A DNA stretch of 36,289 nucleotides, taken from the NCBI GenBank assembly GCA_964351765.1, contig CAYGPY010000002.1, forward strand, positions 1 to 36,289. Direction: 5' to 3'. The position numbers were made by a program, and so were the translations under genes. The notes under the pieces are model-generated. The model saw only the letters and a list, made by a program, of their open reading frames with translations, was not told the origin of the DNA and ran no database searches. Below, in pieces: positions 1,922 through 36,134 of this stretch. Numbering within the stretch: position 1 is the stretch's first letter; each line of letters begins with the position of its first letter. Source of the stretch: an uncultured Vampirovibrionales bacterium. Lineage in GTDB: Bacteria > Cyanobacteriota > Vampirovibrionia > Vampirovibrionales > Vampirovibrionaceae.

Positions 1922-2479
1922 TTAGAAGCCGAAACGGCCAACACCCGGTACACTAACACCAGTAGGGATTCGACCAAATCCGCCACGACGTTTTGTTGCT
2001 GGAGCCGAGGTTGCAGGTGTGCTGGTGGTTGCACTCGCACCTGTAGACGCTCCGGCACTACCCGTAATGGCATTTTCACCAATATTAGTGCCACATTCAT
2101 AGTTATAACCCCAGAAGGTAGTTTTGTGAATGACATTTTTATCATCCAAATTCAGTGTCACGTGACCGTTAACACTATTCATGTACTGGCTTTTGGTTAC
2201 GGTGTGACGACCCGCCTGAACGGTATCGTTATACAAGAAACCCAATGCATTGGCATCAGATACAGCTCCCGGAGCGTAGCCTCCGGTTACGTATTGAGCG
2301 GAGTTATCACAAGGCTTAACCGTCACGGATACCTTATCGGCCCAGCCGTCAGTTACTTTCACGTGCTCGTGAAAAACAGCTTGAACCTTACCCGTTACTT
2401 CACGGGCAAAACTGGTTGCTGATAATAAAACAATACCAGCCAACATCAATGTGGCGGCTTTTTTAGAACTATGTCGCAT
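1922..2479 (-). CDS. Secreted small protein with two conserved Cys, paralogue B, with an S/T/A/P-rich linker and a G/F/R-rich C-terminal tail
   Basis: Signal peptide MRHSSKKAATLMLAGIVLLSATSFA. An AGGAGAGGGA SD lies upstream. The core (VTGKVQAVFHEHVKVTDGWADKVSVTVKPC...AVSDANALG...YNYEC) is co-linear with paralogue A. The tail reads GSAGASTGASATTSTPATSAPATKRRGGFGRIPTGVSVPGVGRFGF. Confidence 0.75.
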   Translation of the reverse strand: MRHSSKKAATLMLAGIVLLSATSFAREVTGKVQAVFHEHVKVTDGWADKVSVTVKPCDNSAQYVTGGYAPGAVSDANALGFLYNDTVQAGRHTVTKSQYMNSVNGHVTLNLDDKNVIHKTTFWGYNYECGTNIGENAITGSAGASTGASATTSTPATSAPATKRRGGFGRIPTGVSVPGVGRFGF

Positions 2480-2552
2480 TCTATCCCTCTCCTAAAGTCG
2501 ATATTATTTAGATGCTGATATAAACTCGCATCATCATTGACATTAAAACATA

Positions 2553-2598
2553 ATAAAACACCACCGGCTTTGCGCAATGACAAAGAGACGGTGGTGTT
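2553..2598 (-). terminator. Rho-independent terminator of the Clp/Hsp100-like gene
   Basis: AACACCACCG (2557-2566) pairs with CGGTGGTGTT (2589-2598). Read on the minus strand the hairpin is followed by TTTTATTA. It lies 22 nt downstream of the stop at 2620. Confidence 0.6.
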
Positions 2599-2619
2599 TC
2601 AATTCTATTTTAAACGCCC

Positions 2620-5600: not shown

Positions 5601-5814
5601 CATCAAGCTTATCAACATCATCAACTTGTCCAAATCGAACGGAGGAAGCAATTAAATCCTTACCCAAAAAAGCCTGAGGCTTAGATGGTTTCGTTGCTAA
5701 TGCGCTTACACTGCCTTCAAACACAGGCAATGCAGCTTGTTTTTTTACAGCATCCTGCTTTATTGGCGATTGCGCTAAACGATTTAAACCATTGGAACCC
5801 ATTAATGTTGTCAT
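2620..5814 (-). CDS. Atypical two-ring Clp/Hsp100 AAA+ ATPase (ClpB/ClpV/ClpC-like) with a long novel N-terminal extension
   Basis: D1 Walker A is LLLAKAGEGKT (encoded about 4610-4642) and Walker B is VVVFIDEIHTI. D2 Walker A is GPTGVGKT (3553-3579), with Walker B VVLFDEIEKAHPDV and the GYVGF motif. One Clp_N-like repeat (FAAPIADALLQADNLAQEQGVPVNSAHIMSVLLKN) is present. About 350 aa precede D1, including an acidic then K/P-rich linker. Confidence 0.85.
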   Translation of the reverse strand: MTTLMGSNGLNRLAQSPIKQDAVKKQAALPVFEGSVSALATKPSKPQAFLGKDLIASSVRFGQVDDVDKLDDEERFDLYGQFAAPIADALLQADNLAQEQGVPVNSAHIMSVLLKNAYDLYIDYNSPEGPSPSVSNEELNFYNAFTAVMRGATKGPIDLFEFQSNFYKEVGKFVVDLGDTHPSGLLPAMQSLVNEMPKEVYDEAPMKYAVNLMRVLDGTYYQYGWEGEPISNVRQPYSMFAYAGLEDVRDKLLSLGVSNVAVEGSLFEFKKEGNDVTLELKNVPNSSAEEDVEEEPPATGTGKVQGAKGAKKANPKTKPKANPGTDIVKAPKDPILTDLEEVDKQFKNLKEYGRNYMMAAYNNELPQVYLRESATQQVETILAADGQRSHALLLAKAGEGKTYTAYRLAQRILEGKVPEPLKDAVMFELDTNALVAGTTYRGDLEKRVQAVVKEITAFSKKNPERKVVVFIDEIHTIAASGNQNILELIKKPLLDNPDLNISMLGATTPEDWRKSSMRNDPAFQRRMKEVPLTGLNKDEMLTILGEEAMRLAKKYNVEFSPQTIEKVFKINQRENPDNMMSGSIDLIQLAASIAVGQPPELAGIADKKQQMNMRYHQLMSYYQRNPNATPDPASVRDLQGLPDHIDQVSQRETDLIAEFEARQDGAQTDVTDRHLRYAKAVLTGSPFNDLDENELDRIMRANDIVAEEIEGQSEALEVVREAMLSLAIRNELDMAGDRPVFSMLLPGPTGVGKTETAKVIAKEFFHGNLIPLDMTDFMEKHAVSKILGAPPGYVGFDSADALTEKVRKNPYSVVLFDEIEKAHPDVINVLLQILEEGRLIDNHGQPVDFSNCAVMMTSNLHQEALRDLLNSHKADSKGLDPEIASMQLDSNVRGLLSNVAADNGFKFRPEFVNRIDFIAPYRNLTRSDVDGILQTFVERYNNQDALKQRNLKIELTDDAKQRLIDLGVATVQLESKKQAIGFATAIKENDTTGSTASADDALPGGAREIRRVFQKTIENKVARLLLSSRDKTNAVLTMGYDAESGNWMPQWKSGPRVKKLNLSA

Positions 5815-6095
5815 CTTCGAAAACCCTATTTAATCTATTCATAACGCGCATGAAACCGTCATGCGTCTCCACGTGCGCACAATACAGATCAATCGTCATA
5901 AGTGTAAACAGTCATTCCAAACACAGTGATAGGCGATATATATGTTTGACGATAACGAGGCCACAAGCCACGCTATGACTTATTAATCTATGATGAAACA
6001 CGGGATAAAGCTGATAATCAACTTACTCTATTAAACCCCAAACATACCGTGGATTGCCCTGAAACACTTATATATTAAGAGGTATTAAGTCCCTA

Positions 6096-6563
6096 TTATT
6101 GCTGGCCAAAAATGGTCACGTTAGTCCGTGTTTGCGTATTGCCCCCGAATGAATCGGATTGAGTTTGCGTGTTTTGCTGAAGCATCCCTTGAGCCGGATT
6201 CCCCATAAATCCACCCCCACTAAACCGACGTTGCGTTTGTAGGTTTTGATATCGATACGGTGATACCGAGCGACCATAAGGGTGGTTATAGTACTGATAA
6301 GAAGGCGTAATCAAGGCCGTGTTACCTTGAGGAACCGTTGTTCGAATAGGCGTGCGGCGAATAGGTACACCCAAATAGAGTGGTGTACCCGTAATAACAG
6401 ATTGCTGATATGGCACATCATCATACGTTTCAGTATAGGTGGTGCCATTAGGAAACGTCACTTCATAACGTTTATAGGCATGCGCCACAAAGCTCGTTAC
6501 TGCAATGCTCAACGCAATAAAAGCAGCGATAGAAAATTTATAAAATTGTTTTTGTATACCCAT
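6096..6563 (-). CDS. Secreted hypothetical protein with a Q/T/N/G-rich low-complexity C-terminus
   Basis: N-terminal signal or anchor FSIAAFIALSIAVTSFVAHA. A Y/P-rich middle is followed by the tail GNPAQGMLQQNTQTQSDSFGGNTQTRTN. I recognise no family motif. Confidence 0.55.
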   Translation of the reverse strand: MGIQKQFYKFSIAAFIALSIAVTSFVAHAYKRYEVTFPNGTTYTETYDDVPYQQSVITGTPLYLGVPIRRTPIRTTVPQGNTALITPSYQYYNHPYGRSVSPYRYQNLQTQRRFSGGGFMGNPAQGMLQQNTQTQSDSFGGNTQTRTNVTIFGQQ

Positions 6564-6620
6564 ACCACTAGTTTAGCCGATTTCAGACTCAATTTCTAGA
6601 TGTAACGATGGTCTAAAGCT

Positions 6621-7643
6621 CTAATTTTCGTCACGATGCCCTAGGACACGCCAGCTCATTTTATTGCGGTGTGTTATTGAATCCAAAGCAAGTTTGTTAT
6701 CGTGATACCAGCTCAAGAGCGTTTCTTTTTTAAGGTAATGCGTCACGGGTGGAATCAGTTGATCGTTAACCATACCCACCACATACCCAAAGCCATACCG
6801 ACGAAGCCACTGAAAATACTGATAGTGAGGCAGTTTTTCAGACATTCCTTTTAAAGGCCATGGCAAACCCGGGTGATAAAACGTATGAAGAAGCGGATAA
6901 AGAATACAACTCAAGGGCACTGCCAACACAACCCGAACCATCATTACAGGCAGTCGGTGGCAAATCGCGCGTAAGGGCTCCACAATCAAGCGGATAAGTC
7001 GGTTGTTTTCCCAGCCATACACCCAAATAAACACTTGGCCTTGCGCTTTTTTAGCAAGAGGCACAATGGCGTTAAATCCATCAATGGGCTTTGGCAGATG
7101 GTGAAGAACCCCCAAGCTAAACACCAGATCAATGCTCTCTTGTTTAATCGGAGGCTCTAATAAGTCAGCCTGAATAAAGCTTAGATTCGGGTTATCCATC
7201 AACATCGACACACCCGCATCAAGGGCATGGCTAATTTCTAAACCAATGACTTGTTTAGCACCGTATTGAGCAGAATAAGCCGAGAAGCCACCCAGCCCGC
7301 TCCCCATTTCCATCACCACTTTATCTTTAAAGTCATCGGGCTGAAGCGGAAGCACCCAATCTCGAAACTGTTCTTCCATATACGGGTTTACGGTGCGTGC
7401 TTTGGCATAAGCCACCCACGCATCACCAAAATTTTCAGCAATATGTTTTTGCTTCTTAGTAGAAATCGTATCCAGATTAATAAACCGAGGCACATAATCG
7501 GTGATGGGGTATGTATGCTGACATGCTGAGCAAACAAGTTTACCCTGATACACTCTCTCGTGAGCATACTCGGCATCGGTCAGGCAAAGCTCATCATGTC
7601 CGCATGCTAAACAATAGAATAAAGATGTGATTTCGGGGTTCAT
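6621..7643 (-). CDS. Class I SAM-dependent methyltransferase with an N-terminal Trm112-like CxxC...CxxC zinc ribbon
   Basis: Zinc ribbon FYCLACGH...LVCSACQHTYPITDYVPRF. SAM motif I is VVMEMGSGLGGFS, with motif-II-like DLVFSLGVLHHL. The hydrophobic C-terminal extension is W/Y/P-rich. The ATG at 7643 is preferred over the TTG at 7712 used by the ORF track. Confidence 0.8.
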   Translation of the reverse strand: MNPEITSLFYCLACGHDELCLTDAEYAHERVYQGKLVCSACQHTYPITDYVPRFINLDTISTKKQKHIAENFGDAWVAYAKARTVNPYMEEQFRDWVLPLQPDDFKDKVVMEMGSGLGGFSAYSAQYGAKQVIGLEISHALDAGVSMLMDNPNLSFIQADLLEPPIKQESIDLVFSLGVLHHLPKPIDGFNAIVPLAKKAQGQVFIWVYGWENNRLIRLIVEPLRAICHRLPVMMVRVVLAVPLSCILYPLLHTFYHPGLPWPLKGMSEKLPHYQYFQWLRRYGFGYVVGMVNDQLIPPVTHYLKKETLLSWYHDNKLALDSITHRNKMSWRVLGHRDEN

Positions 7644-16540: not shown

Positions 16541-17200
16541 ATGCCCACGGCGACTGATAAGATTAGCGTATTTGTGGTGGAGGACTACAAACTTGTTCGT
16601 GTTGGATTACTATCGGTCTTACGTACTGACACCGAATTAAAAGTTCTAGGCGAGTCAGATACGGCTGAAGGCGCCTTGGTCCAAATCAAGGGAATGAAAC
16701 CCGATATCGTATTAATGGACATTGGCCTTCCTGGTATGAACGGTATTGAAGCCACAGAACAGGTTAAAGAACACTGCCCTGATACAAAAGTAATTATGCT
16801 AACCTCTCATGATGAAGAAACCGAAGTACTCGCTGCAATGAGTGCTGGTGCCAACGCATTTTGCTTAAAAGACATTCCTTCTGACAGTTTAATTGAGGTT
16901 ATCAAGTCCGTTCACAACGGAGCGATTTGGCTGGATCCTCAAATTGCTAAAATTGCAATGAACCTTTTTGCCAATAATGACCCCGCCGATATCAATACAG
17001 ACTTAAAAAACCAACTTACCGAAAGAGAACAACAGGTTTTAGAACTCATTGTTGAGGGTAAAAACAACAATGAGATTGCTGAGGTGGTTCACGTCAGTGT
17101 TCACACGATTAAGGTACAAGTTAGCAGCATCTTAGAAAAACTTGCTGTTAATGACCGTGTTCAAGCAGCCGTTAAAGCGGTTAAAGAAGGTATCGTATAA
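16541..17200 (+). CDS. NarL/FixJ-family response regulator (REC + LuxR-type HTH)
   Basis: Receiver motifs VVEDY, DIVLMDIGLPGMNG, IMLTSHD and CLKD. The LuxR HTH reads LTEREQQVLELIVEGKNNNEIAEVVHVSVHTIKVQVSSILEKL. AGGAGA lies 8 nt upstream of the ATG at 16541, whereas the track start at 16532 overlaps the SD. Confidence 0.9.
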   Translation: MPTATDKISVFVVEDYKLVRVGLLSVLRTDTELKVLGESDTAEGALVQIKGMKPDIVLMDIGLPGMNGIEATEQVKEHCPDTKVIMLTSHDEETEVLAAMSAGANAFCLKDIPSDSLIEVIKSVHNGAIWLDPQIAKIAMNLFANNDPADINTDLKNQLTEREQQVLELIVEGKNNNEIAEVVHVSVHTIKVQVSSILEKLAVNDRVQAAVKAVKEGIV

Positions 17201-23410: not shown

Positions 23411-26400
23411 ATGGGTTATACACCTCGTAAACTAAAGCACACCTACCGTCGAGCAGTATCGGCGTTTTTAGCCATGTTGATTGTATTTACCTATAGCGCT
23501 GCAGGTGTTCTCACGGCTCAGGCACTACCAACAGGGTGGAACGTTGTTGAAGGTAACGTTTCTGTGGATATTACTGGTGATATTATGACCATTACCAGCA
23601 CCACGGATACAGCCATCATCAGCTACATCAGTTTTGATCTAGCCAATGGTGAAACCATCAACTTTATTATGCCTGGGGCCTCAAGTTCCATCATTAACCA
23701 AGTCATTGGTGGCAATATCAGTAACATTGCTGGAACCATTAACGCCAACGGTATTATTGGTCTTCAAAATACGGCAGGTATTCAAATTGCAAATTCAGCG
23801 CAAATTAATGCGGCTGCTTTATTAGCAACCACCCTCAACATTGGTAATTTTGATGGCAACAGTATTGGATTGATGAAAGACGCCGGTCAAGATGGTGCCG
23901 CCATTGTGAACGAGGGTGATATCAATGTTAGTAAATACGCTATTTTAGCAGGTTCTGGCATTGCTAACATGGGTAGCATTATTGCTGAAGATGGTACGAT
24001 TCACTTAGCCGTTGGTGATTCTATGACGTTTCACTTATCGGACAACCAAAGTATTTCAGTCACGATTGATGACGGTATTCAAGACACCATTGATGGTTTA
24101 AACGCCACAATTACTAACTCAGGCACAATGGAAGCGCATCAGGTTGAGTTAAAAGCCAAGCTTGCCGATCAGGTGATTGCCCAAGCCATTAACAACGATG
24201 GCGTGATTGAAGCCACGCAACTCAATAACAACGGCGGAACCATTGTTATTGAAGCCATCGGTGGCACACACACCGTTATGAATAGTGGTACCTTAATGGC
24301 CACAGGTAATGCCAATCAATCCGGCGGTGCCATTCATGTGCTGGGTCAAAACATTACTCACCAAGGTGCAACACTCGATGTAAGTGGTGGTACCGGTGGT
24401 GGTAACATCCTTATTGGTGGTGACTATCAAGGCAAGGGTTCCGTTCAGAATGCATTAAACACAACGATCGATGAAAATACTGCGATCAAAGCTAACGCCA
24501 CAAGTGCTGGTGATGGCGGACGTATCATTGTTTGGGCTGATGAGAGCACTGTATTTAAAGGTGATATTTCTGCCACCGGTGGTGCTGTCTCTGGTGATGG
24601 TGGCTTTGCAGAAGTTTCAGGTAAACAGGATCTATTATTCTCAAATTTAGCATCAGCTAATTTAACTGCAACTAATGGCTCTACGGGTACATTGTTGCTT
24701 GATCCAACCAATATTGATATTTATAATGGTGCAGGTACTGATACGGCCAGTGTGTTTTATGAACAAAACCTAGAAACTCTATCTTTAAGCAGTAATATTG
24801 TTTTAATGGCAGATGATAATATTCGTATGCGTAACCTAGCCGATAACGTTTTAGGTCTAGGCGCCAACGATATTACATTGACGACAACCAATTTAGATAT
24901 TTACTTTGATGATGTAAACGATACCATCCGAACTGAAGGCGGTAACATTAATATTACAGCCGGTGATGATATTCGTGTTGGCAGACTAAATACAACCGGT
25001 GCCGCTAGTAATGTGGCTGGTGGTGTTATTGATGTGCGAGCAAACCATGACTTGCAAATTCGAGGCATGAACGCCATTGCAGGTATTACCGCTATTGCTG
25101 ATAACAATAGCAACAATGTTGGTGAATTCCGATTGTATGCTGGTGATGATATCAATACGGGTGGATCCGCTCTAAATGTCCAAGGTGAATTGGTTCGCTT
25201 CTATGACGATGTGTCAACCAGTGGTGGAAGCATTACTGTATTAGGTGACCGTGCTGGTGATGGTACGGGCTTTATTGACTACGCCGCTACAGGAACCGAT
25301 ATTAGTTCAGGCGGTGGTACCATCACCATGACCGCCGATCGTATTTTAATGGATAGTGCCACAAGTACACTGTCTTCGGGTGGCGGTGATATTAACTTGA
25401 TTGATGATGGCGTCAATGACAACGAAGATATCCGTTTAAATAGTGATTTTGCACTTAGTGGACGCAATTTAACCGTGACCACGGCACAAGATTTTGAGAT
25501 GTATGGTACATCAAGCGTAAACATGACGGGTACCGTCTTAGTAAATGCCGATGACGATATTTTGGCCAACGGAAGCACCGTTGGTATTCAAGCAGCGGGC
25601 AATGTGATTTTAAACGCCGATGATGCATTAAACAGCGGTGATGTAACCAGCACAGCAGGTACCATTACTTTATCAGCCGATCATGATGCCAATGGCGTGG
25701 GTAATGCCACTATCTATACAACCACCGATTTAGATGCCAGTGGCAATGACATTACTATTTATGGTCAAACCATTACGTTAAGTAATACCGCAATGACAAC
25801 CAACGGCGGCAATATGTATTTATATGGTAACCGTGCTGGTGTTGGGGCTGGTGTTGTTGATTTTGGTACGAATGCCTTTATCACTACAGGTAATGCAAAC
25901 TTAACGATTCAGAGTGATCAAATGCATTTAGATGGTGGTGCGAGCAGTGGTATTAATGTGGGTACCGGAACACTAACCCTTACTGATAATGGTGCTATTG
26001 ATAACAACGACATTTTAATTAACGGTGGCTTTGCTATCACTGGCCGAAACTTAGTTGCCAACAGTAATCACGATATTAATTTAGCGGGTAACTCGACTAT
26101 CAATATGACCGGCACGATTAACATGAACGCGCTTGATGAGATTACGGCTCAGGGTGGTGATATGACTGCCACGGGTGATATAAACCTCACTGCTGGTGAT
26201 CATAACTATGTGCGTCAAGTGGTAACCACAACGGGTAACATTAACATCATTGCTGATAACAATAATGATGATGTGGGCAACTTTACTATTTATGATGGTA
26301 ATGATGTTGATACTAACGGTGGTAATTTAACCGTACGTGCTGAAAATATTATTATTGCCGATGATGTCTACACCGATGGCGGTAACATTATTCTTGAAGC

Positions 26401-29400
26401 GGATAAAAATAATAATGGTGTGGGATATGTTAACTTTGATACTGATGCCCGTTTGTTTACCACGAATGGTGATGCCACTTTGAGTGGTGACCGTTTGTTA
26501 CTTGATGGTGGTGCACTCAGTGGTATCTTTACCGGCACTGGTAACGTGATACTTACCGATGATGGTTCTACTGACAACGAAGATATTCAGTTGAATACTG
26601 GCTTTACTATCACTGGTCAGCAGATTACAGCCACTAGTAACCATGGCTTAAATATTTATAACAACTCCTCATTAAATTCAAACACCACAATCAGCCTAAC
26701 GGCTGCAACCGATCTCAACGCAAGCTCTGGTGATATGACAGCGGTTGGTAATATTGATGTTTTCTCAGGCAATCATCTCTATGTTAGAGGCGTGACAACC
26801 ACCACGGGTGACATTCAGCTTGTTGCTGATAATAACAACAGTAACGTGGGTAACTTCCGTATTTATGCGGGTACCAACCTCAACACCAATGGTGGTGACT
26901 TAACCGTTCGTGGTGAGAATGTTATTTTGGATGATAACATTGCCAGTGCCGGTGGTAACGTAACACTTGAAGCCGATAAAAATGGGAATGGTTCAGGTTA
27001 TGTTCAGTTCTTAAATAATTCTCAAATTAACACCGCCAACGGTCATGTAAATTTGAGTGGCGATAGATTGCTTTTATATGGCGGTGCAACCAGTGCCATT
27101 AATGCCGGTACAGGTAACGTAACGCTTACTGATGATGGTGCCACAGATAACGAAGATGTTTATCTTGCCAATGGATTCACCATTACCGGTAATCAATTAA
27201 TAGTAAATAGTAACCACGATTTTGAAGTGCGTGATCTATCGACGGTTAACATGACAGGAAACGTGACAGCAACTGCTAGTGATGATGTATTAGCCAATAC
27301 AGGTATTATTGGTTCAACGGGTGGTAATGTTCAACTCAATGCTAATGACTTAGTATACGTGGCTGAAGTAACCACAGGTGGTGGTAGTATTACCTTATCA
27401 TCAGATCACGATAATAATGGCGTGGGTAACTTTATTTTATATGACGGTAACAACATTGATAGTAATGGTGGTGCCTTATCTATTTTGGCTGAGAATATAA
27501 CAATTTACGATGATATTGATACCGATGGTGGTGTTATTACGTTAACAGCCAACCGAAACAATGCTGGTAATGGTACGTTTAACATTGAAGATAATATCAA
27601 TATTGTTTCAGGCAACGCCGATATTAACATCCGAGGTGCTGATATTGCTCTTGATGGTGTTGGTGGCGACGTTGGTGGTAGTATCAATTCGGGTACAGCC
27701 GATATTACAATTACAGAAAACGGTGTTACTGATAGCACCGATGTCTCGATTAACCGTGGCTTTGGTCTAATTGGTCGTAATATCACCATTGATAGTAATC
27801 ATGATATTGAACTCCATAATTCAGCAACCATAACAGCTTCGGGTACCGTTGACTTGGATGCTGTTGATGACATTTACTCGACTTCCGGAACCATTACCAG
27901 TGCGGGTAATATGACAGCCGATGCGGATGATTATATTCAATTAGAAAACGTAAGCGTAACGGGTTTAAACAACACCGTCTTAATGACAGCCAACAACGAT
28001 GTGCGTGTGGATAATGTAACCACCAATAGTGGTGATATTACTTTACGTGCCGATAAAGATGCCAACGGTGCAGGTAACTTCAGATTGTATGTAGGCAACG
28101 TGATTGATACCAATGGTGGTAACTTACGTCTTGAAGGGGAATATGTTCAGCTCGATGATAATGCGTTTGCCGATGGTGGTGATATTAATTTTATTGCTAA
28201 CCGAGACAATGCAGGTAACGGAACATTAACGCTAAACTCATCCTCAATCGATTCGGCCAATGGTGATATTACCCTTCAAGGTGCTGATATGTACTTTAAT
28301 GGTACAGGTGGTAACACCATGAGCGCAGGCACGGGCGATATTACCCTCATTGAAAATGGTAGTGTTGATACAACCGATTTGTACTTTACCAATGGCTATA
28401 CCGTAACAGGTCGTAATTTAACCGCAACCTCTAACCACGATATTGAAGTGCGCCTTGGGTCGCTTATCAATATGACAGGTACTGTCAATATGACGGCAGC
28501 TGATGATATCTTTGCTCAAGACGGCGACATTCGTGCCGCAGGTAATATTGACCTCTTTGCGGGTGACCATTTGTATACCCGTGAAGTGACCACAACAGCT
28601 GGTAATATCCAACTGGTTGCCGATAACAATAATGACAACGTGGGCAACCTAAGCTTTTATGCTGGTAATAATATCAATACCAATGGCGGTAATTTAACCG
28701 GCCGTGGTGAACTTGTGATTATTCAGGATGATATTATTTCTAATGGTGGTAACGTAACACTTGAAGGTGATAAAGCGGGTGACGGCACTGGCTATGTTGA
28801 TTTTTATAATGATGCTAGTATCACCACCGCTGGTGGTAATGTTCACCTGAGTGGTGACAGGTTGCTATTAGATGGCTCAGGTACGTCTGGTATTTCAGCC
28901 GGAGCCGGTAACGTTACCTTGATTGATGATGGTGCGACCAACAACGAAGACATTAGTTTAAACAATACGTTTACCATTACCGGTAACAATTTAACGGCCA
29001 CGTCTAACCACGATTTTGAAATGTATAACGATGCATCCGTAAATATGACAGGCACGGTTTTGGTTAATGCTGATTTAGATGTTGCCGCAAACTCGGGTGA
29101 TATTACCGCTGTGGGCAATATTACTTTAAATGGTGATGATGATGTTCGAGTTCGTGGTGTGGCCAGTACCAATGGTAACGTCACACTTTCTGCCGACACT
29201 GATGCCAGTGGCGTGGGTAGCTTTATTCAATACGCTGGTACCAACATTGCCGTAACTGGTGCCGGTAGAACACTTAGTATCTTGGGTGAAAACATTACGC
29301 TTTATGATGACTTATCTACCAATGGTGGTGTAATGACATTCACCGCAAACAGAAATAATGCGGGTGCAGGTACGTTTAACGTTGAAAGCAATTTAAACAT

Positions 29401-31513
29401 TACCTCTAACAACGCTAACATCAACATTAGTGGTGCTGATGTATTGCTTGATGGTGCTGGTGCTTTAACCGGTGGTGGTGTTAATTCTGGCACGGGTGAT
29501 ATCTCAGTTATCTCAAACAACCCTGCTGATGGTAATGATATTTTGCTGAACCGTGGTTATGGGCTAACAGGCCGAAACCTAACTATGAACTCCACATTTG
29601 ATGTTACGGGTTACAATGATTCAACCATTAATATGACAGGTACCGTTGATATCACAGCCGCTGATGATATTGATTTTAATGGATTGGATATTGTTGGTGC
29701 TTCTGCAATTACACTTAATTCGGGCGATCATATGAATTTCCGTGATATTACCTCAACAGGTGGCGGTAATATCACTTTAAATGCAGATTCAGATTCTAAT
29801 GATGTGGGCAACATCAACTTTGCTGCGGGTGATAACGTTATTACCAACGGCGGTGATTTAATAGCTCGTGGTGAAACCATTACATTAAGTGAGAACCTTA
29901 ATACCTTAGGTGGTGATGTAACTCTGAATGGAAACCGTAATTCGGGTGGTGGTAATGGCGTGATGGACTTTGCCAACAATGCCTTTATTAATTCTGGCAA
30001 TGGTAATGTCTTAATTACCGGTGAAAGCATGCACTTGGATGGCGGTTTAGCCAGTGGTATTGCTTCTGGCACAGGTGACATTACATTAACGGACAATGGC
30101 AACATTAACGGTAATGATATTTATATTCATCAAGGCTTTACAATGACAGGTCGTAATTTAACAGCAACAACCAACCATGATATTAATATGTATAACTCGA
30201 ACGACACCATTACAATGACCGGTGACGTTATTATGGATGCAGGTAGCACGATTGCCCTTCGAAATGTAATTGCAGGTGGCAACATTGGTATTGAAGCAGA
30301 TAGTAATATTAGGGTTTACAACAACGGCTTAACGGCAAATGGTAGCACAGGTTTAAATGGTGCTGCTGATGAAACATTAGCTGTTGTTAGTAAAGCTGGT
30401 AACATTATTGGTGATAATTTTATCACTACTGGTGCAGGTAACACACGTATTCAAGCCGGTACGTTTGATTCGATTACACCAACGTCTTATATTAACGTAA
30501 ACAACGTTCAGGCTAGTGGCAATGCAGCCTTTTACACCACCTACAGTGGTACCGGTAATGGTATTGTTGTCGATAGCAATAGTAGTGTTGCAGGCCACAT
30601 AACGGCTGCTGGATTAAATGCATCTAACTTCTGGCAAGGTGTTAACGGGGGCGTTGTGCTCGATATGGCTTCTGGAAATGCAAACACAGCACTTGTGTGG
30701 ACTAATAATGGTGGCGATATCAACGTAACTGCTCGCAACGGAAGTATCACTCAAGATTTAAGTTACGGTGCCTATGTAAATGGCAAAACGTTACGCGCCA
30801 ATGGCGCCAATGCCGATGTTAATTTACGCGCTTACGGCGGTGCTGGATCGTATATTAGCACCGGTGTGATGGCTCTTGGTGCTGGCTCCGATGTATTGGC
30901 CGAGGCCTTTGGCCAAAGTGGTGGTGGCACCTCTGTTCAGTTATTTGGACGTAGTGATGGTAACACAACTGTTCGCCGATACGGTGGCGGTGGTACTGAT
31001 GGCGATGTGTTCTTAGGTACAAATATTGGTGACCCACTCGATCTGAACGATGTGTATACCGTTTATGACACGTGGGGCAACGCCAATATTAACTCGTTAG
31101 GTGCTGTTCAAATTCACGGTAGTGTATTAGGCAATACCACTATTACTGCAACACGCTTTACAGGCCGGTACGATAAAGAAAATTTAAATGTCAGTAACAT
31201 CACCACAACCGGTGCTGGTGGCGTAGGTATCGATGCTCAGGTACTTCGAGGCAGAATTACAGGTAATAACATGAGTACCGCTGGCGGTGCCAACATGATT
31301 TTACAAGCGGGTAGCCAGTTCCCTCGTGACAAGATGAGTTATATCACGGTGACCAACGTCAACACATCAGGAAATCTAAGCATCAAAGTGGCTGGTAGTA
31401 CTACCGGTGATGGCTCAGGAAACTCTGTCGTTATTACAGGTTCCACAGGAGGTGGTACCACCGTTACCAATGAATCAGGTGGCGCAGCGATTGGCACGGT
31501 TACCACACCGTAG
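23411..31513 (+). CDS. Giant TPS-domain exoprotein (TpsA / filamentous-haemagglutinin-like), 2700 aa
   Basis: Basic and hydrophobic leader, then a TPS/haemagglutination-activity-type domain from about 23525. It reads LPTGWNVVEGNVSVDITGDIMTITSTTDTAIISYISFDLANGETINFIMPGASSSIINQVIGGNISNIAGTINANGIIGLQNTAGIQIAN. The motif GGRIIVWADESTVFKGDISATGGAVSGDGGFAEVSGK...GTLLLDPTNIDI follows. After that come tandem ~190-aa modules and a ~380-aa C-terminal module. No SD lies in front of the ATG. Confidence 0.9.
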   Translation: MGYTPRKLKHTYRRAVSAFLAMLIVFTYSAAGVLTAQALPTGWNVVEGNVSVDITGDIMTITSTTDTAIISYISFDLANGETINFIMPGASSSIINQVIGGNISNIAGTINANGIIGLQNTAGIQIANSAQINAAALLATTLNIGNFDGNSIGLMKDAGQDGAAIVNEGDINVSKYAILAGSGIANMGSIIAEDGTIHLAVGDSMTFHLSDNQSISVTIDDGIQDTIDGLNATITNSGTMEAHQVELKAKLADQVIAQAINNDGVIEATQLNNNGGTIVIEAIGGTHTVMNSGTLMATGNANQSGGAIHVLGQNITHQGATLDVSGGTGGGNILIGGDYQGKGSVQNALNTTIDENTAIKANATSAGDGGRIIVWADESTVFKGDISATGGAVSGDGGFAEVSGKQDLLFSNLASANLTATNGSTGTLLLDPTNIDIYNGAGTDTASVFYEQNLETLSLSSNIVLMADDNIRMRNLADNVLGLGANDITLTTTNLDIYFDDVNDTIRTEGGNINITAGDDIRVGRLNTTGAASNVAGGVIDVRANHDLQIRGMNAIAGITAIADNNSNNVGEFRLYAGDDINTGGSALNVQGELVRFYDDVSTSGGSITVLGDRAGDGTGFIDYAATGTDISSGGGTITMTADRILMDSATSTLSSGGGDINLIDDGVNDNEDIRLNSDFALSGRNLTVTTAQDFEMYGTSSVNMTGTVLVNADDDILANGSTVGIQAAGNVILNADDALNSGDVTSTAGTITLSADHDANGVGNATIYTTTDLDASGNDITIYGQTITLSNTAMTTNGGNMYLYGNRAGVGAGVVDFGTNAFITTGNANLTIQSDQMHLDGGASSGINVGTGTLTLTDNGAIDNNDILINGGFAITGRNLVANSNHDINLAGNSTINMTGTINMNALDEITAQGGDMTATGDINLTAGDHNYVRQVVTTTGNINIIADNNNDDVGNFTIYDGNDVDTNGGNLTVRAENIIIADDVYTDGGNIILEADKNNNGVGYVNFDTDARLFTTNGDATLSGDRLLLDGGALSGIFTGTGNVILTDDGSTDNEDIQLNTGFTITGQQITATSNHGLNIYNNSSLNSNTTISLTAATDLNASSGDMTAVGNIDVFSGNHLYVRGVTTTTGDIQLVADNNNSNVGNFRIYAGTNLNTNGGDLTVRGENVILDDNIASAGGNVTLEADKNGNGSGYVQFLNNSQINTANGHVNLSGDRLLLYGGATSAINAGTGNVTLTDDGATDNEDVYLANGFTITGNQLIVNSNHDFEVRDLSTVNMTGNVTATASDDVLANTGIIGSTGGNVQLNANDLVYVAEVTTGGGSITLSSDHDNNGVGNFILYDGNNIDSNGGALSILAENITIYDDIDTDGGVITLTANRNNAGNGTFNIEDNINIVSGNADINIRGADIALDGVGGDVGGSINSGTADITITENGVTDSTDVSINRGFGLIGRNITIDSNHDIELHNSATITASGTVDLDAVDDIYSTSGTITSAGNMTADADDYIQLENVSVTGLNNTVLMTANNDVRVDNVTTNSGDITLRADKDANGAGNFRLYVGNVIDTNGGNLRLEGEYVQLDDNAFADGGDINFIANRDNAGNGTLTLNSSSIDSANGDITLQGADMYFNGTGGNTMSAGTGDITLIENGSVDTTDLYFTNGYTVTGRNLTATSNHDIEVRLGSLINMTGTVNMTAADDIFAQDGDIRAAGNIDLFAGDHLYTREVTTTAGNIQLVADNNNDNVGNLSFYAGNNINTNGGNLTGRGELVIIQDDIISNGGNVTLEGDKAGDGTGYVDFYNDASITTAGGNVHLSGDRLLLDGSGTSGISAGAGNVTLIDDGATNNEDISLNNTFTITGNNLTATSNHDFEMYNDASVNMTGTVLVNADLDVAANSGDITAVGNITLNGDDDVRVRGVASTNGNVTLSADTDASGVGSFIQYAGTNIAVTGAGRTLSILGENITLYDDLSTNGGVMTFTANRNNAGAGTFNVESNLNITSNNANINISGADVLLDGAGALTGGGVNSGTGDISVISNNPADGNDILLNRGYGLTGRNLTMNSTFDVTGYNDSTINMTGTVDITAADDIDFNGLDIVGASAITLNSGDHMNFRDITSTGGGNITLNADSDSNDVGNINFAAGDNVITNGGDLIARGETITLSENLNTLGGDVTLNGNRNSGGGNGVMDFANNAFINSGNGNVLITGESMHLDGGLASGIASGTGDITLTDNGNINGNDIYIHQGFTMTGRNLTATTNHDINMYNSNDTITMTGDVIMDAGSTIALRNVIAGGNIGIEADSNIRVYNNGLTANGSTGLNGAADETLAVVSKAGNIIGDNFITTGAGNTRIQAGTFDSITPTSYINVNNVQASGNAAFYTTYSGTGNGIVVDSNSSVAGHITAAGLNASNFWQGVNGGVVLDMASGNANTALVWTNNGGDINVTARNGSITQDLSYGAYVNGKTLRANGANADVNLRAYGGAGSYISTGVMALGAGSDVLAEAFGQSGGGTSVQLFGRSDGNTTVRRYGGGGTDGDVFLGTNIGDPLDLNDVYTVYDTWGNANINSLGAVQIHGSVLGNTTITATRFTGRYDKENLNVSNITTTGAGGVGIDAQVLRGRITGNNMSTAGGANMILQAGSQFPRDKMSYITVTNVNTSGNLSIKVAGSTTGDGSGNSVVITGSTGGGTTVTNESGGAAIGTVTTP
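24900..30250 (+). repeat. Intragenic tandem array of about nine diverged 191-212-aa (573-636 nt) modules within the 2700-aa gene
   Basis: The in-frame anchor motif ([ST]-x-[HQF]-D after ...GRNLT..) recurs at 25481, 26063, 26636, 27209, 27794, 28430, 29003, 29591 and 30170. The spacings are 582, 573, 573, 585, 636, 573, 588 and 579 nt. One more copy lies upstream of 25481. Nucleotide identity between copies is only moderate by eye. Confidence 0.85.
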
Positions 31514-31646: not shown

Positions 31647-34565
31647 GTGGGTATTATGCCGTTAATACCAAAAAAATCAAGCACAAAGCTTGGTATCAAA
31701 CGATTTTGTCGTTTTCTTGCCAGTGCTATTGCGATGTTGATTGTATTTTCAGCATCGGCTTTTGCCCTGCCCACAGGTTGGAATGTGGTTGAAGGGAACG
31801 TGACGGTTGATATCACCGACAACATTATGACGATCACCAGCATCAGTGATCAAGCTATTATTAGCTACGTGAGCTTTGACTTGGCCAGTGGTGAAACCAT
31901 TAATTTTATTATGCCTGGTGCATCAAGCAGTATTATTAATAAAGTAATCGGTGGCAATATCAGTAACATCGCAGGATCCATTAACGCCAACGGAATTATC
32001 GGTCTTCAAAACACAGCAGGGATTCAGATTGCAAACACGGCTCAGATTAATGCCGCCGCCTTACTGGCCAGCACACTTAACATTGCCAATATGGACGCAA
32101 ACCGTATTGATCTAATGAAAGACCCCGGTACTAATAATGCCGGTATTTTAAACGAAGGTCAGATTGATGTAAGTCAGTTTGCCATTATTGCAGGCTCTGG
32201 CGTGGCAAATTTAGGTAGTATATTTGCAGATGATGGCACCATTCACTTGAGCGTGGGCGATAAAATGTCGTTCCATCTGAGTAACAACACCACCGTGGAT
32301 GTGGTGATTGATGAAGGTATTCATCAAGTTATTGGTAGCTTAAACACAGGCATTCACAACAAAGGGTTATTAGTCGGGCATCAAGTAGAACTTCGTGCTC
32401 GATTGGCGGACGAAGTTATTTCTCAAGCCATTAATCAAGACGGCATGATTCAAGCCACCCACTTAAACAACGAGGCAGGCTCCATTGTATTAAAAGCAGA
32501 GGGCGGCAATAATTTAGTCACCAACACAGGTATCTTATTTGCAGGAGCTTCAGCCAATGAAGATGGTAGATTAGCTACTACTAGTATTAATCAAGAAGCT
32601 GGTCGCATCACCATTCAAGGCACGGCAGCCTTGAACTCGGGCGTTGTGATTGCAACAGGGGGAATGAACGAAAAGGGCGGTACTGTTCACATGTTTGGTG
32701 ATACGGTCATTAATGATGGGTCGTTGATTGATGTATCTGGCGATATCGGTGGCGGTGAAGTCCTTATTGGTGGCGATTTTCAAGGTACAGGTGTTGCACC
32801 ACGAGCAACACTGAACGTGGCCTCTAACGATAGTATTGTCTTTGCCGATGCGATGAGTGAAGGTGATGGCGGGCGTGTTATTTTTTGGAGTGATGAAGAT
32901 ACCTTCTTTTCTGGTGGTATTTCAGCTCGCGGTGGTGTGCTTTCAGGTAACGGTGGGTTTGCTGAAGTATCGGGTAAAAAATATTTAGACATGCAGGGCG
33001 TTGCTGATTTAACGCCCGGTAACGATACAGGTGTTAAAGGAACGTTGTTACTTGATCCAACCAACATTAACATTGTGGAATTTGATCCCAATGATTTGAA
33101 TCCGGTACTGTGGCTAGACGGCAGTGACGCAAGTACCATTTCAACATCAGGATCCTTTGTTACGCAATGGCGCGATAAATCCGGCAATAATAATCACGCG
33201 AACCCACAAGCTGTCGCTAACCGACCACAAACAGGGGTAAGCAGCCTAAATGGAAACAATGTTCTTACATTTGATGGTGGTGATGATGTCCTAACGATTA
33301 CCGACCATGCTTCTTTAGATAACTCAAACGGTATGAGTTTCTTCACCGTCGTTACTCCCAAGGATAGTGATAGTAATCCTCGTGGCATCTTTGCTAAGCG
33401 TGTCAGCTCAGGTTCCCCAGCATCTCAATATGGCTATACACTTTTCTACTGGCACAGTAACCGACTTTATGCCGATTTTCATACGCAAAACAATCGATTT
33501 AACACGAGTAATGCTTACGCACCGAATAACACCTATATGCACTCAATGATTTATGACGGAACACAAACCAGTGCCCTTCGCATGAGCCTGTATGACAACA
33601 CCGTGCTCAATAGAAATGCCACGGAAAGTAGTGCAACGATTCCTGATACTGCAGCAAACTTTTACGTGGGCATGCTCAACTATAACTACGGCGCTGGCGG
33701 TCACTTGGGTGATATTGCTGAAATTCTCATTTACGGCTCGGCTTTAAACACCAATGATCGCTATTTGGTCAATCAATATCAAGCCGCCAAGTGGGGTCAA
33801 ACATTAGGGACGACACTAAATCAGTTTTCAGAAATTACCGATGGTTATTTAAAATACCTAACCGAAACGGCAGATGTGTCCTTACTTGCCGATCAAAATA
33901 TCACCATTGAAAATATGAGTGATAACTTACTGGATTTAGGAAACCGTAATCTAACCCTAACAGCCACCAACGGAAACATTGTATTTAACGATACCAATGA
34001 TGTGTTGCGCACTGAAGGTAGCAACATCACAATGACAGCCGGTGGCACCATGACTTTAGGCACCTTAAGCACGCGCGGAGCCAGTGGTGCATTAAACACA
34101 GGTAATGTACTACTCACCAACACAGCAACAAATAACATCACGTTAAACGGGGGTGCCGTTGGTGGAAATTTAACCGTTGATGGCTTTGCTGGTAGCCAAG
34201 TCGTTGTAAATAACACAACAGTGATTGGTAACACAGACATTGATATTAACGGCTCCAACGGTGATATAACCGGAACCGGCAATGTATTTACCGGAACCAG
34301 TCGACTAGACACCAACGATTATAACGGTGGAAACATCACAATGACCGGTAATTTTATTGGCGGTGTGGATCTTAACGGCGATCAACTTACCATCACGGAT
34401 ACCGTTGGTGATTTACTTGTCACAAATTTAATCAGTGGTTCACGCGTTGCAAACAGTGTTATTAGCGCCACCGCAGCAGGTGCTGATATAACCCTTAGTA
34501 CCTATGATATTGGTAGAGGTGGTGGTGGATATTTAGAAGACAATGCAAATGACAATGTTAACTAA
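31647..34565 (+). CDS. TPS-domain exoprotein paralogue, N-terminal 972-aa part, with an inserted LamG/ConA-like domain
   Basis: GTG at 31647 (or ATG at 31656). From 31767 the TPS domain is roughly 75-80% identical by eye to that of the 2700-aa protein. The shared GGFAEVSGK...GTLLLDPTNINI block is present. It ends at TAA 34563-34565, and the same frame reopens after a second TAA. Confidence 0.85.
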   Translation: MGIMPLIPKKSSTKLGIKRFCRFLASAIAMLIVFSASAFALPTGWNVVEGNVTVDITDNIMTITSISDQAIISYVSFDLASGETINFIMPGASSSIINKVIGGNISNIAGSINANGIIGLQNTAGIQIANTAQINAAALLASTLNIANMDANRIDLMKDPGTNNAGILNEGQIDVSQFAIIAGSGVANLGSIFADDGTIHLSVGDKMSFHLSNNTTVDVVIDEGIHQVIGSLNTGIHNKGLLVGHQVELRARLADEVISQAINQDGMIQATHLNNEAGSIVLKAEGGNNLVTNTGILFAGASANEDGRLATTSINQEAGRITIQGTAALNSGVVIATGGMNEKGGTVHMFGDTVINDGSLIDVSGDIGGGEVLIGGDFQGTGVAPRATLNVASNDSIVFADAMSEGDGGRVIFWSDEDTFFSGGISARGGVLSGNGGFAEVSGKKYLDMQGVADLTPGNDTGVKGTLLLDPTNINIVEFDPNDLNPVLWLDGSDASTISTSGSFVTQWRDKSGNNNHANPQAVANRPQTGVSSLNGNNVLTFDGGDDVLTITDHASLDNSNGMSFFTVVTPKDSDSNPRGIFAKRVSSGSPASQYGYTLFYWHSNRLYADFHTQNNRFNTSNAYAPNNTYMHSMIYDGTQTSALRMSLYDNTVLNRNATESSATIPDTAANFYVGMLNYNYGAGGHLGDIAEILIYGSALNTNDRYLVNQYQAAKWGQTLGTTLNQFSEITDGYLKYLTETADVSLLADQNITIENMSDNLLDLGNRNLTLTATNGNIVFNDTNDVLRTEGSNITMTAGGTMTLGTLSTRGASGALNTGNVLLTNTATNNITLNGGAVGGNLTVDGFAGSQVVVNNTTVIGNTDIDINGSNGDITGTGNVFTGTSRLDTNDYNGGNITMTGNFIGGVDLNGDQLTITDTVGDLLVTNLISGSRVANSVISATAAGADITLSTYDIGRGGGGYLEDNANDNVN
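33102..33797 (+). other. LamG / concanavalin-A-like lectin (Laminin_G_3-type) domain inserted in the neck of the second TpsA-like protein
   Basis: The start PVLWLDGSDASTISTSGSFVTQWRDKSGNNNHA and the end FYVGMLNYNYGAGGHLGDIAEILIYGSALNTNDRYLVNQYQAAKWG are the characteristic motifs of LamG-like jelly-roll domains in bacterial surface proteins. Confidence 0.7.
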
Positions 34566-34646
34566 ACCAAAGAAGCTTAACAATGGACTCTAGATGAACG
34601 TCTGGTTTTAAATTCAACCAACGGTGGCGACATTACCATCAATAAT

Positions 34647-36134
34647 ATGGTGACCTCTCAACAAATCGAAGCACGCTCGGCAGCCTATGCAGTAGGCACT
34701 GTGGCTAACGGCACCTACGTATCTACAAACGGGGGCGACCTAACCATTAACAATCTTAATTCCACCAGCGATGTGACTGTACTCAGTGGCATTAACAATG
34801 TGAGTGTGGGTAGCGGTGCTGGTAATGCTGTGGCAAATGTAAGGCATTTAAATTTAACAGCCACCGGTGATGCAATTGGGTACGGCTCGATAACAGGTAA
34901 CGTAGGTGCGACAGCAAGCAGAGTGTGGATGCATGATACCAACGGAGATCTTACATCCGTGGGCTTAAGTGCTTCAGGTGCATCGGGTTGGAATGGTGGT
35001 GCTGATGAAACGCTCGTTGCACAAGCCATTAATGGTGATATTAGAGGCGTAGGTTTCACCACAACAGGTGCTGGTAACATGCGCTTACAAGCTGGGTCCA
35101 CAGCCACACTGGGTACTGGTTATAGTGTGGATGTGACGAATGTTAGTGCCAATCAAAATGCAGAATTTCATTCCGCGGGTGCCGATGCAGGCGTTAGTAT
35201 TCGCGTGGGAGGTACCAGCAATGTAGGTGGTAATATCACAGCGACTGGCTACAATGCATCCAACCAGTTTGTTGGTACCACAGGTCGTGTGGATATCACC
35301 ACCACGAGTGGGAATATTGACACAGCCATGGTGTGGAGTGGTGAAGATATTTATTTAACCGCCAATAATGGAAGCATCACTCAAAATACAGCAGCCTATG
35401 GCACAGGCTATAACAACAGCAAAACTTTATACGCTGCCGATGACATTGTACTAACGGCTCAAGGTGCAGGCAGTTCCCATATTGACACAGGCGTACAAAC
35501 CTTAAGTACCACAGGTAACCTAACCGTACTGGCCAACGGTAGCACAGGTGGTACATCCATCCGCGTGATTGGGCGTGTGGATGGCAATGGTACATTTACC
35601 AACACCAGTAACGGAAATACACCAGGCGATATCTGGCTGGGCACATCATTAGGCGGGTCGGTAACCAACTTGGATGACACTAACCAAACCATGGATATTC
35701 GAGGCAATGTTGTTGCCAAATCAAACGGGACAGTTTATATGTATGGTGCCTTTGGTCTTGCGGGCACACTCGATATTATTGGTGATCGCATTGTGGCAAA
35801 TGCTGATAAGTGGAACTTAAATTTCACACGCGCTCAAACCACAGCTACCACAGGGAATGGTATTGACTTAACAGCCTATCGAGGTAACTTACTAGGTACA
35901 AACATCTCCACAGCGGGCAGTGCTAACATTGTTTTACAAGCAGGCAATTCACTTCCTCTGGACAAAATGACGCTTATAAATTTAAGCAGTGTTACCACGG
36001 CAGGTAACTTAAACGCAACGGCTTATGGAAGTAACACGGGCAATCAAACCGGCAATAGCATCACCATTACCGGTAGTACAGGTGGGAGCACAAGTACAAC
36101 ATCACATGTAAATGGTACCGTTAGCACACCCTAA
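34647..36134 (+). CDS. C-terminal part of the second TpsA-like protein (same frame as 31647-34565); probable fragment of a nonsense-interrupted gene
   Basis: The frame is open from 34581 and the first ATG is at 34647, with no SD and no signal peptide. The last ~380 aa are co-linear with the C-terminus of the 2700-aa protein. Shared landmarks are GADETL, TTGAGN.R.QAG, NGSITQ, ILQAG...DKM and ITGSTGG...GTV(S/T)TP-stop. Confidence 0.75.
   Translation: MVTSQQIEARSAAYAVGTVANGTYVSTNGGDLTINNLNSTSDVTVLSGINNVSVGSGAGNAVANVRHLNLTATGDAIGYGSITGNVGATASRVWMHDTNGDLTSVGLSASGASGWNGGADETLVAQAINGDIRGVGFTTTGAGNMRLQAGSTATLGTGYSVDVTNVSANQNAEFHSAGADAGVSIRVGGTSNVGGNITATGYNASNQFVGTTGRVDITTTSGNIDTAMVWSGEDIYLTANNGSITQNTAAYGTGYNNSKTLYAADDIVLTAQGAGSSHIDTGVQTLSTTGNLTVLANGSTGGTSIRVIGRVDGNGTFTNTSNGNTPGDIWLGTSLGGSVTNLDDTNQTMDIRGNVVAKSNGTVYMYGAFGLAGTLDIIGDRIVANADKWNLNFTRAQTTATTGNGIDLTAYRGNLLGTNISTAGSANIVLQAGNSLPLDKMTLINLSSVTTAGNLNATAYGSNTGNQTGNSITITGSTGGSTSTTSHVNGTVSTP

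Follow-up and report, generated by a model that had tools for sequence, protein, structure and literature searches.

Two closely spaced in-frame stop codons interrupt a TpsA-type exoprotein gene in a Vampirovibrionales genome assembly

Does a pair of closely spaced stop codons separate two genes, or does it interrupt one? The question arises in the window studied here (the whole 36,289-nt stretch of DNA analyzed, from a Vampirovibrionales metagenome-assembled genome, MAG), where a first-pass annotation described a TpsA-like gene as split by two in-frame TAA codons. Both codons, at 34563–34565 and 34578–34580 with 12 nt between them, were seen again in the window sequence, and the ORF listing places the flanking ORFs (31647–34565, 972 aa, and 34647–36134, 495 aa) in one shared frame. 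This frame is open from 34581 on, with ATG 34647 as the earliest in-frame ATG, GTG, or TTG. Both alternative frames meet stops near the junction and neither links the ORFs, excluding a simple frameshift as the annotation had argued. The two-ORF geometry alone is not unusual, because neighboring genes in this genome are closely packed: at 186 sites, two same-frame open frames of at least 150 codons lie no more than 25 codons apart, many of them separated as TAA..TAA. What distinguishes the 34563 site is that homology to the single ORFs of relatives continues through the stops.

Comparison with intact relatives indicates that the two ORFs derive from a single gene. P0023 (1456 aa), P0024 (1458 aa), and P0004 (1264 aa) are intact single ORFs with the same architecture, namely a signal peptide, a TPS (two-partner secretion) domain, an inserted block of ~240 aa, a neck, a beta-helical stalk, and a conserved C-terminal module. 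Across the junction, P0023 (locus L029) and G012:C70 (L014) align without gaps. Each stop amounts to one base substitution, because these two collinear relatives read TAT (Tyr) and TCA (Ser) at the TAA positions. ORFs in G015 and G002 are likewise continuous across the junction position, and two paralogues in the same genome, gene A (23411–31513, 2700 aa) and one on C115 (2702 aa), are single ORFs that combine a TPS head with the tail module. A two-gene arrangement conserved in orthologues, which the first-pass annotation had named as the contrary case, was not borne out, since the orthologous loci have continuous ORFs with sense codons at both stop positions. The frame is thus continuous in orthologues and collinear homology lies on both sides of the stops, the pattern by which a nonsense pseudogene is recognized. 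Given this collinearity with single ORFs, 31656–36134 is evidently one ancestral TpsA-like gene and the two ORFs are its pieces, as first proposed. The proper annotation is a single interrupted TpsA-type gene (a pseudogene, or a gene with an internal stop), not two genes (Table 1).

Table 1. Features of the interrupted gene and its junction, in window coordinates
Feature	Position	Strand	Remarks
N-terminal piece of broken TpsA-type gene	31656..34565	+	ends at TAA no. 1
TPS (two-partner secretion) domain	31767..32498	+	Pfam PF05860, residues 41–284 of the 972-aa ORF
Short imperfect inverted repeat, CAATGTTAA (15 nt) TTAACAATG	34553..34585	+	right arm holds TAA no. 2
Premature stop TAA no. 1	34563..34565	+	TAT (Tyr) in both intact relatives
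Four sense codons ACC AAA GAA GCT (T-K-E-A)	34566..34577	+	between the stops; collinear with T-K-L-T and T-K-L-A of the relatives
Premature stop TAA no. 2	34578..34580	+	TCA (Ser) in both intact relatives
C-terminal piece	34581..36134	+	second half of stalk module, then conserved ~400-aa C-terminal module ending GTVSTP

The same comparisons bear on the reading that these are two genuine neighbors, a short TpsA gene followed by a separate tail gene or by an orphan cassette of the tpsC or cdiA-CT kind. Same-frame TAA..TAA neighbors are common in this compact genome, and there is precedent in the cassettes without a 5′ secretion domain that PMC3848433 describes downstream of meningococcal tpsA. 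However, homology to single ORFs continues over the junction at unchanged spacing, the upstream piece lacks any C-terminal module that a cassette could substitute for, and the tail module never stands alone. It is present in 20 of 1.84 billion representative proteins, always at the C terminus of proteins of 963–2988 aa or in fragments beginning mid-module, and none of these 20 carriers is a stand-alone tail protein. The one apparent exception, P0002 (595 aa), was discarded as part of a TpsA gene fragmented on a contig of 1.69x coverage. An orphan C-terminal cassette was also rejected, the upstream piece being tail-less and the downstream piece being the family tail, collinear with single ORFs. 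We regard two genuine genes as extremely improbable. Independently of the stops, the tail module is rare, sits on TPS-headed and Sec-only heads alike, and is mosaic between relatives, and the family may merit a study of its own.

The upstream piece has the layout of a secreted TpsA head. Translation probably starts at ATG 31656, or else at GTG 31647, and the piece comprises in order a Sec signal peptide, the TPS secretion domain, the inserted block (~240 aa), the neck, and the first half of a stalk module. The translation includes a hydrophobic leader (...LIVFSASAFA/LPTGW), and the TPS domain scores above cutoff with both PF05860 (E = 1.2e-14, 55.4 bits against a curated 33.5) and TIGR01901 (E = 5e-12, 45.5 bits against 29.1). 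TPS domains usually carry conserved NPNL and NPNG motifs. Here the translation (...GSINANGIIGLQN) has N-A-N-G at the usual NPNG position, with both HMMs still above cutoff. Identity to the intact P0004, P0023, and P0024 is 54% in the head and 64–68% in the neck. The cognate TpsB (Omp85/ShlB-type) transporter is usually encoded in the same operon as TpsA. We found no TpsB gene in the 36-kb window or in the orthologous loci, and ShlB-type TpsB genes lie on C3, C123, and C244 of the same genome (PF03865 above cutoff). The TPS domain has been described as the smallest part of a TpsA protein that suffices for its secretion (PMC5422565).

The downstream piece is a well-preserved tail with no start signal. 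It carries neither a signal peptide nor a TPS domain, and there is no purine-rich Shine–Dalgarno (SD)-like run in the 20 nt upstream of ATG 34647, both in agreement with the first-pass annotation. The further claim that it encodes the conserved C-terminal module of the family also holds, with residues 111–517 78% identical to P0004; residues 1–110 are 71% identical to P0023. Neither Pfam nor NCBIfam profiles match the tail, and the C-terminal module has no match among PDB sequences. An AlphaFold2 model of the 517-aa tail is nearly all beta-strand solenoid (mean pLDDT 83.8), and its top Foldseek neighbors are all beta-helix folds, none of them significant (best EtpA, E = 0.045). The tail shows no decay or relaxed constraint. 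It keeps 71/75 columns that are invariant among six homologues, its tree branch is about equal to that of its intact sister (0.22 and 0.18), and its 517 codons contain no further stops. The break is therefore either very recent or not real. For a pseudogene, such a lack of relaxed constraint leaves room only for a very recent loss.

We find no sign that the stops are recoded. TAA is the commonest stop codon in this genome, ending 692/1050 long ORFs (66%), and its role as terminator of the genes at 1325–1327 and 17198–17200 was confirmed. The search for tRNAs found 31, with no suppressor and no UUA anticodon among them. Together these counts uphold the earlier judgment that codon reassignment is unlikely, and the standard code applies. 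The RNA fold around the junction is unremarkable (z = −0.11), the junction matches no Rfam family, and it has no promoter or terminator signal above chance. For translational bypass, no in-frame matching pair of take-off and landing codons occurs near the junction, and the only AAC that could serve for landing beyond the take-off AAC-TAA lies in another frame and leads into a TAG. Readthrough is very unlikely because two TAA codons occur in succession, they are unconserved in relatives, and the RNA structure is ordinary. Programmed readthrough, recoding, and reassignment were accordingly rejected as candidates, on the TAT and TCA of the relatives, the fold, the lack of an Rfam match, and the lack of a suppressor tRNA.

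Could the break nevertheless be functional? Under this reading either a head-only form is selected, with the second TAA as back-up, or the tail is made separately by re-initiation at ATG 34647 or by low-level readthrough or bypass. The head seems, from its domains, to retain all that export through a TpsB requires, the tail ORF is unbroken, and two close stops would tighten termination. However, no relative has stops at this site, all having sense codons; no SD-like sequence or start lies near 34581; and the RNA structure is ordinary, with no Rfam match, suppressor tRNA, or bypass codon pair. Lacking both a signal peptide and a TPS domain, the tail could not be exported, and serial readthrough of two UAA codons would be vanishingly rare. 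We consider functional truncation improbable. It is highly improbable that the double TAA is a selected allele giving a short secreted head-only TpsA protein with the ~240-aa block, its silent tail restorable or exchangeable by recombination with mosaic paralogues. If true, this would constitute an on/off or length switch, by point mutation or gene conversion, for a Vampirovibrionales surface protein. Overall, neither programmed readthrough nor a pair of genuine genes is a likely reading.

The two stops belong to a cluster of changes. Within about 20 nt we observe TAT to TAA, TTA/CTG to GAA, TCA to TAA, and CCA/CCC to CAA, all inside a motif (Y-T-K-L-x-S-P-W) kept by two divergent relatives. 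Four nonconservative changes fall in 6 columns conserved by both relatives (P = 0.017 Fisher’s exact test, on columns chosen post hoc), and for a gene of 1490 codons the chance that two independent nonsense hits fall within 5 codons of each other would be roughly 1%. Such clustering fits a single local event, and that event could as well have been a burst of sequencing error. One weak lead is a template switch at the 9-nt inverted repeat (Table 1) as the origin of part of the cluster, since the three derived changes in its right arm all increase complementarity; chance alone should produce inverted repeats of this length in the region, and this one leaves TAA no. 1 unexplained. No k-mer of at least 16 nt around the junction recurs in the assembly, and the junction is therefore not a join between paralogues. 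There is also no second copy of the junction 21-mer, allowing up to 3 mismatches. With no shared k-mer of that length and no second 21-mer, paralogue crossover, a DGR-type template, and a repeat at the junction were all rejected.

The chief alternative to a real break is a local error of sequence or consensus in a MAG that is fragmented and of low coverage, the gene being intact in the organism with Tyr and Ser at these positions. The fully conserved tail agrees with this, as do the 110 residues after the stops, which are 71% identical to P0023 compared with 54% in the head, and the clustering of changes in ~20 nt of a motif conserved by two divergent relatives. So does the state of the assembly, which is in 448 contigs, 84% complete, and scaffolded with N-gaps. 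One such gap, of 10 N, imitates a frameshift on C129, where a candidate second broken paralogue was dismissed for this reason. Against an error, both TAA codons lie inside one assembler k-mer, so that the string must have been present in reads, and the site has no repeat or paralogue k-mer from which a chimeric path could arise. Furthermore, the contig is clean elsewhere: ORFs of 2700, 1564, and 1064 aa are intact and no large ORF is broken in the remaining 36 kb, implying a low general error rate. We regard an error as possible but doubtful. Metagenome scans with the tail protein and with a degenerate back-translation of WTLDERLVLNSTNGG returned no same-species sequence, and no short partial protein was found that stops at the junction or extends over it. 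The genus is represented by this genome alone, and the nearest intact relatives have 46–78% protein identity, with synonymous sites saturated.

On balance, we think it somewhat probable that the source population of the MAG carries a nonsense allele of very recent origin at this locus, making it a fresh pseudogene or a truncated gene. The stops would then be present in the DNA of the organism. In this account, two nonsense substitutions of one base each, set 15 nt apart, would have broken a TpsA-type (type Vb) exoprotein gene of about 1490 codons (31656–36134) within its beta-helical stalk: Tyr TAT to TAA (34563–65) and Ser TCA to TAA (34578–80). Translation would halt at 34563 and yield a product of ~970 aa with a signal peptide and TPS domain, lacking half a stalk module and the conserved C-terminal module. 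By analogy with the family, this head fragment would probably be secreted, through one of the unlinked TpsB transporters of the genome. The downstream 517 codons would go untranslated to any useful extent, the event being too recent for decay. Four options had been listed in the first-pass annotation; a fresh pseudogene or a sequence error are favored by the single-base nature of the stops, readthrough is very unlikely, and deliberate truncation, though conceivable, finds no support.

Loss or truncation of large adhesin genes is common, and the break has little importance beyond annotation. If the stops are real, a small, lineage-restricted family of giant beta-helical surface proteins has one member that this bacterium makes without its tail. 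Like the TpsA exoproteins FhaB, HMW1, and EtpA, the protein has an N-terminal Sec signal followed by a TPS domain and a long body predicted to be beta-helical, EtpA being the nearest, nonsignificant PDB neighbor of the tail. It differs from them in its very rare, unmatched C-terminal module, its Vampirovibrionales MAG host, and its interrupted gene, and from usual TpsA systems in having no adjoining TpsB gene, here or at orthologous loci. As in young nonsense pseudogenes of large surface-protein genes, the in-frame stops are single-base changes between open and collinear flanks; unlike in typical cases, constraint is not yet relaxed and the stops, instead of being scattered, lie together in 15 nt. 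Finally, the downstream piece resembles the orphan tpsC and cdiA-CT cassettes of Neisseria and CDI systems in being a TpsA C-terminal ORF without a start signal or secretion domain, but where those cassettes encode a variable toxin tip with an immunity gene, this one encodes the gene’s own conserved tail, parted from the head by nothing more than two nonsense point changes.

Homology indicates that the head and tail reading frames of the second TpsA-type gene belong to a single gene. Among 1.84 billion representative proteins, only 20 are homologous to the tail piece, and in every full-length homologue (963–2988 aa) the tail module is the C-terminal end; short tail matches start mid-module at their own residue 1 and are therefore contig-end fragments. 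A 595-aa match resembling a stand-alone tail was rejected, as it comes from a TpsA gene fragmented on a contig of 1.69x coverage. Three intact relatives (P0023, P0024 and P0004) share an architecture of leader, TPS head, ~240-aa inserted block, neck, stalk and tail, and two paralogues in the same genome each hold head and tail in a single ORF: gene A (23411–31513, 2700 aa), which adjoins the broken gene and has both parts in common with it, and C115 (2702 aa, on another contig). The case for one broken gene stands on this homology rather than on geometry: at 186 sites in the genome, two long open stretches share a frame and are separated by ≤25 codons, many with TAA..TAA between them, and such arrangements are not rare because genes are tightly packed.

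The junction reads GTT AAC TAA ACC AAA GAA GCT TAA CAA TGG (34557–34586). The first-pass annotation had described one TpsA-like gene split by two in-frame TAA codons, and all its factual statements on the junction proved correct when sequence, frames and starts were re-examined, as did its citing of TAA as the stop at 1325–1327 and 17198–17200. The earliest canonical start 3′ of the second TAA is ATG 34647, with no purine-rich Shine-Dalgarno-like run upstream, and neither of the remaining two frames can bridge both ORFs at the junction. Spacing across the junction is identical in the P0023 gene (locus L029) and in a gene from another relative's genome (G012:C70, locus L014), and the site is free of indels, mobile elements and module boundaries. 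Both relatives (2/2) carry TAT and TCA at the two TAA positions; a single base change, T→A in the first and C→A in the second, therefore accounts for each stop. More distant relatives (genomes G015 and G002, and G012:C31) likewise keep the frame continuous; the first stop position is I in them, and the second is T, G or A.

Features of the broken gene, its junction and its relatives (window coordinates unless another contig or protein is named)
Feature	Location	Strand	Remarks
Premature TAA no. 1	34563–34565	+	in frame with ORF 31647–34565
Premature TAA no. 2	34578–34580	+	in frame with open stretch from 34581
Head ORF	31647–34565	+	972 aa
Tail frame	34581 to TAA 36132–36134	+	517 aa; same frame as head ORF
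Inserted block, ~240 aa	33084–33806	+	residues 480–720 of 972-aa ORF
C-terminal module, ~400 aa, ending GTVSTP	34911–36131 and 30206–31510; P0004–P0021	+ (34911–36131)	20 representatives in 1.84 billion proteins
Scaffold gap, 10 N	G000 C129 ~5804–5814 (L009 1501–1511)		
P0023, intact relative			1456 aa; full architecture
P0024, intact relative			1458 aa; full architecture
P0004, intact relative			1264 aa; full architecture minus one stalk module
Window junction			...N-D-N-V-N-stop-T-K-E-A-stop-Q-W-T-L-D-E-R-L-V-L-N-S-T-N-G-G
P0023 junction			...N-N-D-I-A-Y-T-K-L-T-S-P-W-V-L-N-E-R-L-V-L-N-S-T-N-G-G
G012:C70 junction			...N-K-N-I-N-Y-T-K-L-A-S-P-W-T-L-D-E-R-L-V-L-N-S-T-N-G-G

Recoding at the junction stops is very unlikely. 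Of 1050 long ORFs in the genome, 692 terminate in TAA; a UUA anticodon is absent from all 31 detected tRNAs, and neither stop is conserved in relatives. The 161 nt around the stops fold no better than shuffled sequences (z −0.11), no Rfam family matches anywhere in the window, and the junction has no promoter- or terminator-like excess. Meaningful readthrough through two serial UAA codons is implausible. A hop from AAC 34560–62 was also rejected, its sole landing site (AAC 34579–81) being out of frame and followed by TAG.

The broken gene is probably, if by no means securely, a real, very young nonsense allele; a local consensus error in the assembly at both stops is possible but rather unlikely. 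Intact ORFs of 2700, 1564 and 1064 aa elsewhere on the contig imply a low general error rate, which we counted for a real allele, and both TAAs lie inside one assembler k-mer and so co-occur in reads. No k-mer of ≥16 nt near the junction recurs in the assembly and the junction 21-mer has no near-copy, making a chimeric paralogue join unlikely. Against these points, the tail is undecayed: of 75 columns invariant among six homologues, 71 are preserved in it, a retention equal to that of intact members in a leave-one-out comparison, and this counts for an artefact, or at least for a single local event. The same side gains from the tail's terminal branch (0.22 vs 0.18 for the intact sister P0004), from the 110 residues directly past the stops (71% identity to P0023 vs 54% for the head), and from the ~1% coincidence of an independent double nonsense within 5 codons of 1490. 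Four non-conservative changes (Y→stop, L→E, S→stop, P→Q), the stops included, also fall together among six columns conserved in both relatives, against a background of 18/98 such columns (Fisher P = 0.017, for a cluster chosen post hoc). The assembly is scaffolded, and an apparent frameshift between 1268-aa and 372-aa frames in the C129 paralogue (2078–6812) was rejected as a mutation because it is a 10-N scaffold gap. The second TAA lies inside the right arm of a small inverted repeat (CAATGTTAA and TTAACAATG, 15 nt apart), where all three derived bases raise complementarity to the left arm and hint at a template-switch event; a repeat of this size is expected by chance and leaves the first TAA unexplained. 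Two metagenome scans and a partial-protein search found no second assembly of the species.

The head ORF matches PF05860 (E = 1.2e-14) and TIGR01901 (E = 5e-12), both above curated cut-offs, behind a hydrophobic leader in the translation; N-A-N-G (..GSINANGIIGLQN..; translation of 31647–32500) stands at the usual NPNG position of TpsA proteins. PF05860 also matches the first 530 aa of gene A (E = 7e-20). No TpsB gene lies in the window, nor does one flank the intact orthologues (L029, L030), and the lineage's TpsA genes mostly have no adjoining TpsB gene. ShlB-type genes occur in the same 3.09-Mb metagenome-assembled genome (448 contigs, 84% complete, 43.6% G+C; the window is its contig C2 in full) at C3:33374–34306, near a TpsA paralogue, C123:1441–2391 and C244:5–826. 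Relatives with this protein family are titled "uncultured Vampirovibrionales bacterium" in public records, save one "Coleofasciculaceae cyanobacterium" (G015; L020, DATNPJ010000015.1), which is assigned to the family of the Vampirovibrionales metagenome-assembled genomes; its title is probably a naming inconsistency.

The rare tail module has no match in Pfam, NCBIfam or PDB sequences, including by profile search of the latter. The model of the 517-aa tail is a continuous all-beta solenoid of good confidence (pLDDT 83.8, pTM 0.85), for which Foldseek returned nothing significant in the PDB (best, the TpsA adhesin EtpA, E = 0.045). The module occurs both on TPS-headed proteins and on Sec-signal beta-helix proteins in which Pfam detects no TPS domain (G012:C70, G015, G002). 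The inserted block, "LamG-like" in the first-pass annotation, has no Pfam match at E ≤ 0.01 and is not unique to the broken gene, with homologous blocks in C115, P0004, P0023 and P0024 (25–31% identity). The broken gene (31647–36131) is a mosaic. P0004 shares 78% identity with its tail and P0023 only 48%; the stop-bearing stalk module is 58–71% identical to P0023 and has no equivalent in P0004 (just 28% over an overlapping repeat). These identities point to module shuffling among family members. The gene A tail (30131–31510, last 460 aa) is 88% identical to that of P0015, a protein of 1592 aa from another assembly, indicating a much shorter stalk in a close relative.

Should the stops be real, the last residue translated would be 972 (969 counting from ATG 31656), and the product would retain the leader and TPS domain and lose half of one stalk module together with the conserved tail. 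A review describes the TPS domain as the minimal region required for TpsA secretion (PMC5422565), and we infer that a truncated product would still be exported via a TpsB. The broken gene adds a new, interrupted member to the TpsA family, and its lesion (or error) is of an ordinary kind for a large repetitive surface-protein gene; the useful result is its annotation as a single gene containing two internal stops, subject to confirmation from reads. An orphan-cassette arrangement was rejected: unlike tpsC or cdiA-CT orphan cassettes, the downstream piece here is the broken gene's own conserved tail.
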